DNA of 64,000 nucleotides from Escherichia coli (lineage in GTDB: Bacteria > Pseudomonadota > Gammaproteobacteria > Enterobacterales > Enterobacteriaceae): the NCBI RefSeq assembly GCF_003018255.1, contig NZ_CP027440.1. One strand, given 5' to 3'. The stretch's first letter is position 1, and every line of letters starts with the position of its first letter. A program made the translations under genes and the position numbers. This document shows positions 12,222-12,430 of the stretch, in pieces. The notes beneath the pieces were generated by a model. It was not told the origin of the DNA. It searched no databases and saw only the letters and a list, made by a program, of their open reading frames with translations.

Positions 12222-12430
12222 TTCTTCTTCATCCCAGAGGAAAAAAGGCCAAGGAGAAACGCATGCAGGCACTCCTTCGCACAGCACACCTGCCGTATAG
12301 CTCTGAATCAAGGATTTTAGGGAGGCGATTCCTCCTGCCATTAAGGCCACTGGTTGCGATTCACAACCAACAAATCTGCCTACATGCGTGTTTATGAACA
12401 TATCACTTCAACTTTCTGTTTTCCAGAAGT
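12222..12430 (-). ncRNA. Candidate retron msr-msd non-coding region
   Basis: Immediately upstream of ret on the same strand. Two 5-bp hairpins with the same loop (GGAGG-cgatt-CCTCC about 12321..12335; GGTTG-cgattca-CAACC about 12351..12367) and an imperfect 12-nt inverted repeat (12260..12271 versus 12377..12388) that could be a2/a1. Exact boundaries not determined. Confidence 0.55.

Follow-up and report, generated by a model that had tools for sequence, protein, structure and literature searches.

An Escherichia coli prophage region upstream of an RT-Toprim gene matches the msr-msd non-coding RNA gene of Retron-Eco2 (Ec67)

What is the structured DNA that lies between a reverse transcriptase (RT) gene and the cos site of an E. 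coli prophage, and does it encode an RNA or a protein? The region occupies positions 12222-12430 of the window, by which we mean the whole stretch of 64,000 nucleotides analysed here (contig NZ_CP027440.1, assembly GCF_003018255.1). A first-pass annotation, made from the letters alone, had proposed that a1/a2 repeats surround an msr-msd here, on the minus strand and upstream of the RT gene. Comparison with the genome of E. coli S10, the source strain of the Retron-Eco2 complex in cryo-EM (PMC12405507), revealed 0 mismatches across window 11914-12436, an interval that covers the whole ncRNA; this DNA identity, together with the match of the adjacent protein to Ec67, bears the proposal out. Of 5426 complete E. 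coli genomes, 13 contain the flagged DNA at 99.4% identity, strain S10 being the first match, and in all 13 it adjoins a gene annotated as 'retron Ec67 family RNA-directed DNA polymerase/endonuclease'. We thus identify window 12259-12390 (minus strand), on the basis of sequence, as almost certainly the msr-msd ncRNA gene of Retron-Eco2 (Ec67), type I-C1, with its RT-Toprim gene next to it at 12221-10461.

The layout of the locus is that of a retron: a structured ncRNA gene lies directly upstream of the RT gene on the same strand, is closed by a1/a2 inverted repeats, and carries a branching G at the inner end of a2 (G15 = 12376) and an opposing G beside a1 (G119 = 12272). Specific to Retron-Eco2 are the CAGA context of G15 and a 67-nt msd running from dT1 to dC67, both of which are present. 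For the identical S10 element, msDNA linked to RNA via a 2',5' bond has been demonstrated experimentally, and we infer expression and activity of the window copy. The locus itself holds no novelty, as Ec67/Eco2 is already known as a textbook, structurally solved anti-phage retron. It is said to be the earliest E. coli retron on record (1989), and publications of 2025-2026 covered its structure, its trigger and the activity of its effector.

The protein encoded by ret scores 704.4 bits against the NCBIfam model retron_Ec67_fus (cutoff 450) and matches PADLOC RT-Toprim_I-C over its full length (E = 1.5e-216). It is identical at 584 of 586 residues to the chains deposited as 'Retron Ec67 protein' (PDB 9I2F, 9I2G, 9S1F and 9LM3), the two differences being D123N and K541R. 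Reading the translation, we located the RT motifs NAYKH (106-110), YADD (199-202) and VTG (257-259), the retron definitions being NAXXH, YADD and VTG (PMC7736814), as well as the Toprim motifs EGKTD at 374-378 (E374-G375-K-T-D378) and DND at 460-462 (D460-N-D462). Across 35 members of the family, none of these motif residues varies. The signature of type I-C1 is an RT with a C-terminal Toprim bearing EGxxD/DxD and no separate effector gene (PMC7736814); in the window the Toprim is fused to the RT, and the neighbours of the retron are a portal gene and cos.

The two substitutions raise the question of whether the retron is crippled, such that D123N, with or without a contribution of K541R, would cut or abolish msDNA synthesis or defence and leave a silent copy. 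Codon 123 (window 11853-11855) lies three residues after the catalytic D120, within the same motif (DLKDFF), and both reference structures carry D at this position; codon 541 corresponds to window 10599-10601. Alignment of the family nonetheless makes loss of function very unlikely, as N is the natural residue at position 123 in 6 of the 35 diverse members, position 541 varies freely, every invariant catalytic residue is preserved and the ncRNA is unchanged. Because N occurs naturally at position 123 in these relatives, we expect the N123 copy to function normally.

We then consider the ncRNA itself. The two 5-bp hairpins with a common cgatt loop that had been described from the letters are both present where they had been placed (Table 1), and the string common to both loops reads cgatt on the plus strand and extends to 7 nt, GAAUCGC, on the minus strand. 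The inverted repeat described alongside them, imperfect, 12 nt long and bracketing about 129 nt, likewise exists, with its dimensions adjusted: a repeat search returned arms of 13 nt at 12259-12271 and 12377-12389 that are 92% complementary and enclose 105 nt, the repeat measuring 131 nt from one outer end to the other, and the figure of about 129 nt describes the outer span. The sole mismatch in the repeat is A/C when read as the plus strand and a U.G wobble when read as minus-strand RNA, and as RNA the closing helix comprises 13 bp, perfect apart from one G.U.

Folding of the minus-strand RNA, one of the checks put forward in the first-pass annotation, gave a clear result: 12394-12255 folds at -59.3 kcal/mol (z = -4.8), a stability that none of 200 shuffles reached, and in this fold we find the 13-bp helix that closes the structure, the GGAGG/CCUCC hairpin and a hairpin of 9 bp capped by an AAU triloop. 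The plus-strand fold is less stable (-42.7 kcal/mol, z = -2.85), and this asymmetry points to the minus strand; a plus-strand RNA was rejected on account of its weaker fold and the A/C mismatch in its closing helix. A covariance-model search, the other check suggested, could be run with public models and returned 0 Rfam matches even at E<=1: nothing was matched when 11000-14000 was scanned at E<=1, nor was anything reported for the ncRNA region when the whole window was scanned at gathering score. As no model in the library matches the ncRNA of the Ec67 retron type, we do not count this blank against retron membership.

To describe the anatomy of the RNA, we numbered it such that position n equals 12391 minus the window coordinate, and took segment boundaries from PMC12405507. 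The published Eco2 boundaries fall base for base on the window sequence (Table 1), and the CAGA context of the branch point is given as peculiar to Ec67 (PMC6868368). The letters of the msDNA are those of the plus strand, TCCTTCGC...TTCCTCCTGCC (12273-12339, 67 nt). When folded alone, the msDNA forms no better structure than its shuffles (z = 0.05), which fits the report that Eco2 msDNA adopts an inter-subunit three-way junction and not a hairpin (PMC12916289). The only element in its centroid DNA fold is the GGAGG/CCTCC hairpin.

Table 1 Features of the Retron-Eco2 locus in the window, with RNA positions (r) and msDNA positions (d) where applicable.
Feature	Window position	Strand	Details
ret, RT-Toprim fusion, 586 aa	10461..12221, stop codon included	minus	start ATG 12221
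Spacer, a1 to RT start codon	12222..12258	minus	37 nt
a1 arm	12259..12271	minus	r120-r132; preceded by 'opposing' G119 (12272)
msd, template of 67-nt msDNA	12273..12339	minus	dT1 = 12273 opposite rA118; dC67 = 12339 opposite rG52
Hairpin 1, plus-strand letters	GGAGG 12321-12325, loop cgatt 12326-12330, CCTCC 12331-12335		read from sequence
Second hairpin, GGAGG-AAUCG-CCUCC	12321..12335	minus	r56-r70; msr/msd junction, just inside the reverse-transcription stop
rG52-rA62 (published)			GGCAGGAGGAA in window; pairs with dT57-dC67
msr, not reverse transcribed	12340..12390	minus	r1-r51; 100% identical to E. coli S10
rG43-rU51 (published)			GGCCUUAAU in window
Hairpin 2, plus-strand letters	GGTTG 12352-12356, loop cgattca 12357-12363, CAACC 12364-12368		read from sequence
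msr stem-loop, rG20-rU42	12349..12371	minus	9 bp, AAU triloop in MFE fold; includes GGTTG-cgattca-CAACC 12352-12368
rA16-rU19 (published)			AUUU in window
Branching guanosine, rG15	12376	minus	context C-A-G-A; directly 3' of a2
a2 arm	12377..12389	minus	r2-r14; repeat search and MFE helix
IRa2, rA6-rA14 (published)			AUGUAGGCA in window
Candidate -10, TATGTT	12397..12402	minus	hand-read; 6 nt before r1 (12390)
Candidate -35, TGGAAA	12420..12425	minus	hand-read; 17 nt upstream of TATGTT

For the mechanism, we draw on work on the identical element (PMC12916289, PMC12405507). According to this model, the transcript would fold with a2 paired to a1, the RT would bind the msr stem-loop, and the 2'-OH of G15 (12376) would prime cDNA synthesis on the msd template, beginning opposite A118 (12273) and stopping opposite G52 (12339), with U51 flipped out. 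The product would be a 67-nt DNA joined to RNA by a 2',5' bond, assembled into a 3:3 RT-Toprim/msDNA trimer in which the msDNA would cage the Toprim nuclease. Degradation of the msDNA by phage nucleases (DenB of T2/T4, A1 of T5) would free the nuclease, which would cut tRNAs and bring about translation shutdown (abortive infection). The window sequence contradicts none of this Eco2 mechanism, which would apply to the window copy as carried over from the literature.

To place the ncRNA within its family, we compared it with the upstream regions of related RT-Toprim genes. A protein search yielded 4261 homologues at E <= 1e-30, from which 35 RT-Toprim proteins were aligned, and 80 genomic loci were fetched from the genome collection, spanning Proteobacteria, Firmicutes, Acidobacteria, Cyanobacteria and others. 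The phage collection contained 0 copies of the retron and only 1 full-length RT-Toprim relative. A simple inverted-repeat search revealed an Ec67-like architecture upstream of the RT in 65 of the 80 loci; at the other 15 this search gave no convincing a1/a2, these being cases of short upstream flank, of other registers and possibly of different ncRNA types. In the 65 loci, an a2/a1 helix of 11-17 bp is followed by an invariant A-G-A and a U-rich tract, the total length is 120-148 nt, and the tblastn match starts ~7-66 nt beyond the end of a1 (67-126 nt if 60 nt of ORF are counted).

Across these 65 relatives, 11 of the 12 pairs of the a1/a2 helix show changes on both sides (216 double-change cells), whilst slid controls pair at 21-40%. 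The 100% pairing of a1/a2 is partly a product of construction, the arms having been picked by an inverted-repeat search; this does not apply to the position they have in common, to their invariant flanks or to how varied the arm sequences are. Positions invariant or at least 90% conserved in the 65 sequences are A14, G15, A16, U19, G29, U32, C33, G34, G43, A49, G52, U63, G111, C112, A115, G117, A118, G119 and U120, with strict invariance in the branching A-G-A and in G-A-G-U at r117-r120. The first templated base, rA118, is thus invariant and the last, rG52, is at least 90% conserved; conservation of the branching G, the opposing G, A118 and G52 agrees with the solved structures.

Alignment by MAFFT followed by RNAalifold recovered a1/a2, only 4 pairs of the msr hairpin and none of the second hairpin, because stem lengths and loop sizes vary among relatives and shift the register. 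In its place, we searched each sequence separately for hairpins, using conserved columns as anchors and shuffles as controls. By this measure, the msr hairpin has a mean stem of 7.3 bp and reaches at least 6 bp in 94% of sequences as compared to 18% of shuffles; its 5' arm takes 37 different sequences, and its loop is usually an N-W-U triloop. The second hairpin has a mean stem of 4.8 bp as compared to 3.9 in shuffles (highest shuffle-set mean 4.3), and stems of at least 5 bp occur in 48% of sequences and 28% of shuffles. Conservation of the msr hairpin is therefore robust, whilst the second hairpin is weakly supported. In the ncRNAs of two loci, L003 and L008 (Vreelandella and Shewanella), a mini-hairpin GGAUUGCUCC with the usual AUUGC motif is found ~60-85 nt after the branching G, ~15 nt downstream of the aligned position, and the msr/msd boundary may be shifted in these cases. 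A consensus structure for clade 8 ncRNAs (structured-RNA family 'IC') has already been published (Mestre et al. 2020); in our comparison the type I-C ncRNA architecture is seen again in many phyla, and its conserved nucleotides are listed above.

Are the two hairpins then twins? They are not equivalent: GGTTG/CAACC forms the core of the one stem-loop in msr, and GGAGG/CCTCC lies at the msr/msd junction. The 5' arm of the latter falls in the RNA that is kept hybridised to the 3' end of the msDNA (r52-r62), and its 3' arm falls in the copied template. In the general model of retrons, the copied template RNA is degraded. With one arm in retained RNA and the other in copied template, the GGAGG/CCTCC hairpin can form solely in the RNA precursor or, in DNA form, in free msDNA. 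We also considered whether the second hairpin, together with the conserved U63-N-G-C 3' of r52-r62, could be a family-wide signal for RT stopping or for trimming of the template RNA, which we judge very unlikely; if it were true, the same RT surface would recognise both loops, and the exact copy of the msr loop in Ec67 would stem from this.

A related proposal starts from the loops themselves, and holds that the identical GAAUCGC strings are two functional sites for one RT surface, serving priming and the setting of the stop point. An identity of 7 nt in two loops 30 nt apart is improbable by chance alone, and the second hairpin adjoins the termination site, with the U63 of its loop at least 90% conserved. 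Against this, GAAUCGC is found in both regions only in the window retron: in the other 64 relatives the longest string common to the two regions is 2-5 nt, with 0 of 64 exceeding 5 nt, and the nearest relative, L002 (73% RT identity), has GAAUCAC in one region and GUAUCGC in the other. As the second hairpin is in addition weakly conserved, and as the published structures have a single msr stem-loop with termination by flipping of U51, we regard the proposal of two functional sites as highly improbable. Two motifs are constrained separately in the family, ...G-NWU-CG... in the msr loop and U-N-G-C at the junction, and the shared GAAUCGC loop is probably a coincidence between them.

The claim that the region encodes no credible protein also held up, as the solved-structure chains and the family members begin at MTKTSK. 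The possibility that the stretch is an N-terminal extension of the RT, as in the RefSeq 626-aa protein from ATG 12341 or the mechanical ORF reaching ATG 12401, has next to no chance of being correct: the frame is open from 12401 to the RT and PGAP has the longer CDS in E. coli S10 (L001 10312-12192), but the NCBI 586-aa cluster, like the structures, begins at MTKTSK, family members of 579-600 aa align from residue ~1-10, the upstream variation in relatives consists of paired compensatory changes with no codon pattern, and ATG 12341 belongs to the conserved AAUG at the reverse-transcription stop point. A 62-aa ORF on the plus strand (12209-12397) was not a credible protein.

Returning to the msr-msd gene, we compared it with current annotation of the identical S10 locus. 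In RefSeq/PGAP this locus has no ncRNA feature, and its RT CDS starts 40 codons too early (window ATG 12341), reaching into the msd. A 64-aa 'hypothetical protein' in RefSeq (L001 12243-12437; window 12392-12586, minus strand) spans cos and the candidate promoter, and ends about 2-3 nt before msr begins (12390). The missing ncRNA, the early RT start and the 64-aa ORF look like annotation artefacts, and the practical value of the present analysis lies in the annotation of the element.

A consensus sigma-70 promoter scan reported none above threshold upstream of msr, and a single chance hit inside the msd. Reading by hand, we noted TGGAAA and TATGTT (Table 1) as a possible msr-msd promoter; this pair agrees with the consensus at just 8 of 12 positions and so went unreported by the scan. 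From 12452/12453 onwards the sequence is again homologous to retron-less P2/186-like phages, so a promoter carried by the cassette must lie in 12391-12452.

A P2/186-like prophage carries the retron, which sits between its portal gene and cos. On the left of the retron are the genes for capsid, terminase and portal proteins; on the right are a DinI-like gene and those for a replication endonuclease, a Dam methylase, CII/CI and an integrase. The 186-like cos is found at window 12478-12460 on the minus strand (GGCGTGGCGGGGA...), where the window has GGCGTGGCGGGGATACGAG and phage 186 has GGCGTGGCGGGGAAAGCAT; reading the flagged region as a phage cos or packaging element was rejected, as cos (12460-12478) lies outside the ncRNA. 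In phage 186 the order is cos (1-19), ~145 nt, terminator tW and portal gene W. Taken together with the point at which phage homology resumes (12452/12453), this order indicates that the cassette (~10420-12452) replaces the cos-to-terminator spacer, a site that PMC6868368, summarising Dodd & Egan 1996, gives for both Ec67 and Ec86.

Divergence from S10 is unevenly distributed over the compared interval (9391-12604). Within 10436-12436 there are 8 mismatches (0.4%), as compared to ~66 in the flanking portal gene at 9391-10419 (6.4%) and 16 in 12437-12604 (9.5%). This pattern of sequence divergence suggests a recent cassette exchange between different P2/186-like prophage backbones. The window prophage is a different mosaic from the S10 carrier prophage, its flanks being 6-10% diverged versus 0.4% for the cassette, and it is integrated at the mtfA/hprS region whilst that of S10 is at rcdA/ybjJ. 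It ends at ~22720, from where the core E. coli chromosome (mtfA, hchA, hprS, msrP region) continues. None of the complete E. coli genomes in the collection carries this exact prophage at this site, the best being 88% covered at 93.8% identity.

The two prophages also differ in gene content beyond the cassette. Between cos and the DinI-like gene, S10 has ~770 bp (L001 12455-13227) with a gene for a 111-aa hypothetical protein (WP_001059831.1), and in its place the window has ~70 unrelated bases (12604-12673). Further along, a gene at 15707-16717 (minus strand) encodes a 336-aa PAPS-reductase-like protein (phrog_424) with weak SspD/BrxP/DndC-like matches. It lies directly upstream of a Dam-family adenine methyltransferase gene (16714-17634, minus strand), with which it overlaps by 4 nt, and the S10 prophage has only ~150 bp at the place of the PAPS-reductase-like gene. 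The two genes may form a DNA-modification or defence moron pair.

Of the systems described so far, the closest is Retron-Eco2 (Ec67; type I-C1) from E. coli Cl-1/S10 (PDB 9I2F, 9I2G, 9S1F, 9LM3), which shares with the window the same ncRNA, the single-gene layout and the portal-cos position, the window RT-Toprim differing by D123N and K541R. Retron-Eco1 (Ec86; type II-A) is found at the same site, from cos to the terminator, in 186-like prophages (PMC6868368) and resembles Eco2 in having a1/a2, a branching G and an msDNA that guards an effector. It shares only the RT domain with the window protein (E = 1e-33, residues 16-285), and unlike Eco2 has a separate effector, an 86-nt msDNA, a TAGC branch context and a filamentous complex. 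The nearest sister RT domains are those of type XI (RT-protease) and type XII (RT-TIR) retrons (PADLOC 321-324 bits, residues 5-292), which like Eco2 belong to RT clade 8 and have an effector fused C-terminally; this effector is a protease or a TIR domain, not a Toprim.

Outside the prophage, the window contains one tRNA-Ser(CGA) and four tRNA-Asn(GTT) genes (31155-31244, 32236-32311, 40395-40470, 42219-42294 and 44628-44703), and these five form the serU/asnT-asnW-asnU-asnV region. Two further RNA elements exceed their Rfam gathering scores, a cobalamin riboswitch at 48921-49095 (minus strand, 107.5 bits) and the sRNA STnc230 at 50162-50245 (plus strand, 76.3 bits).
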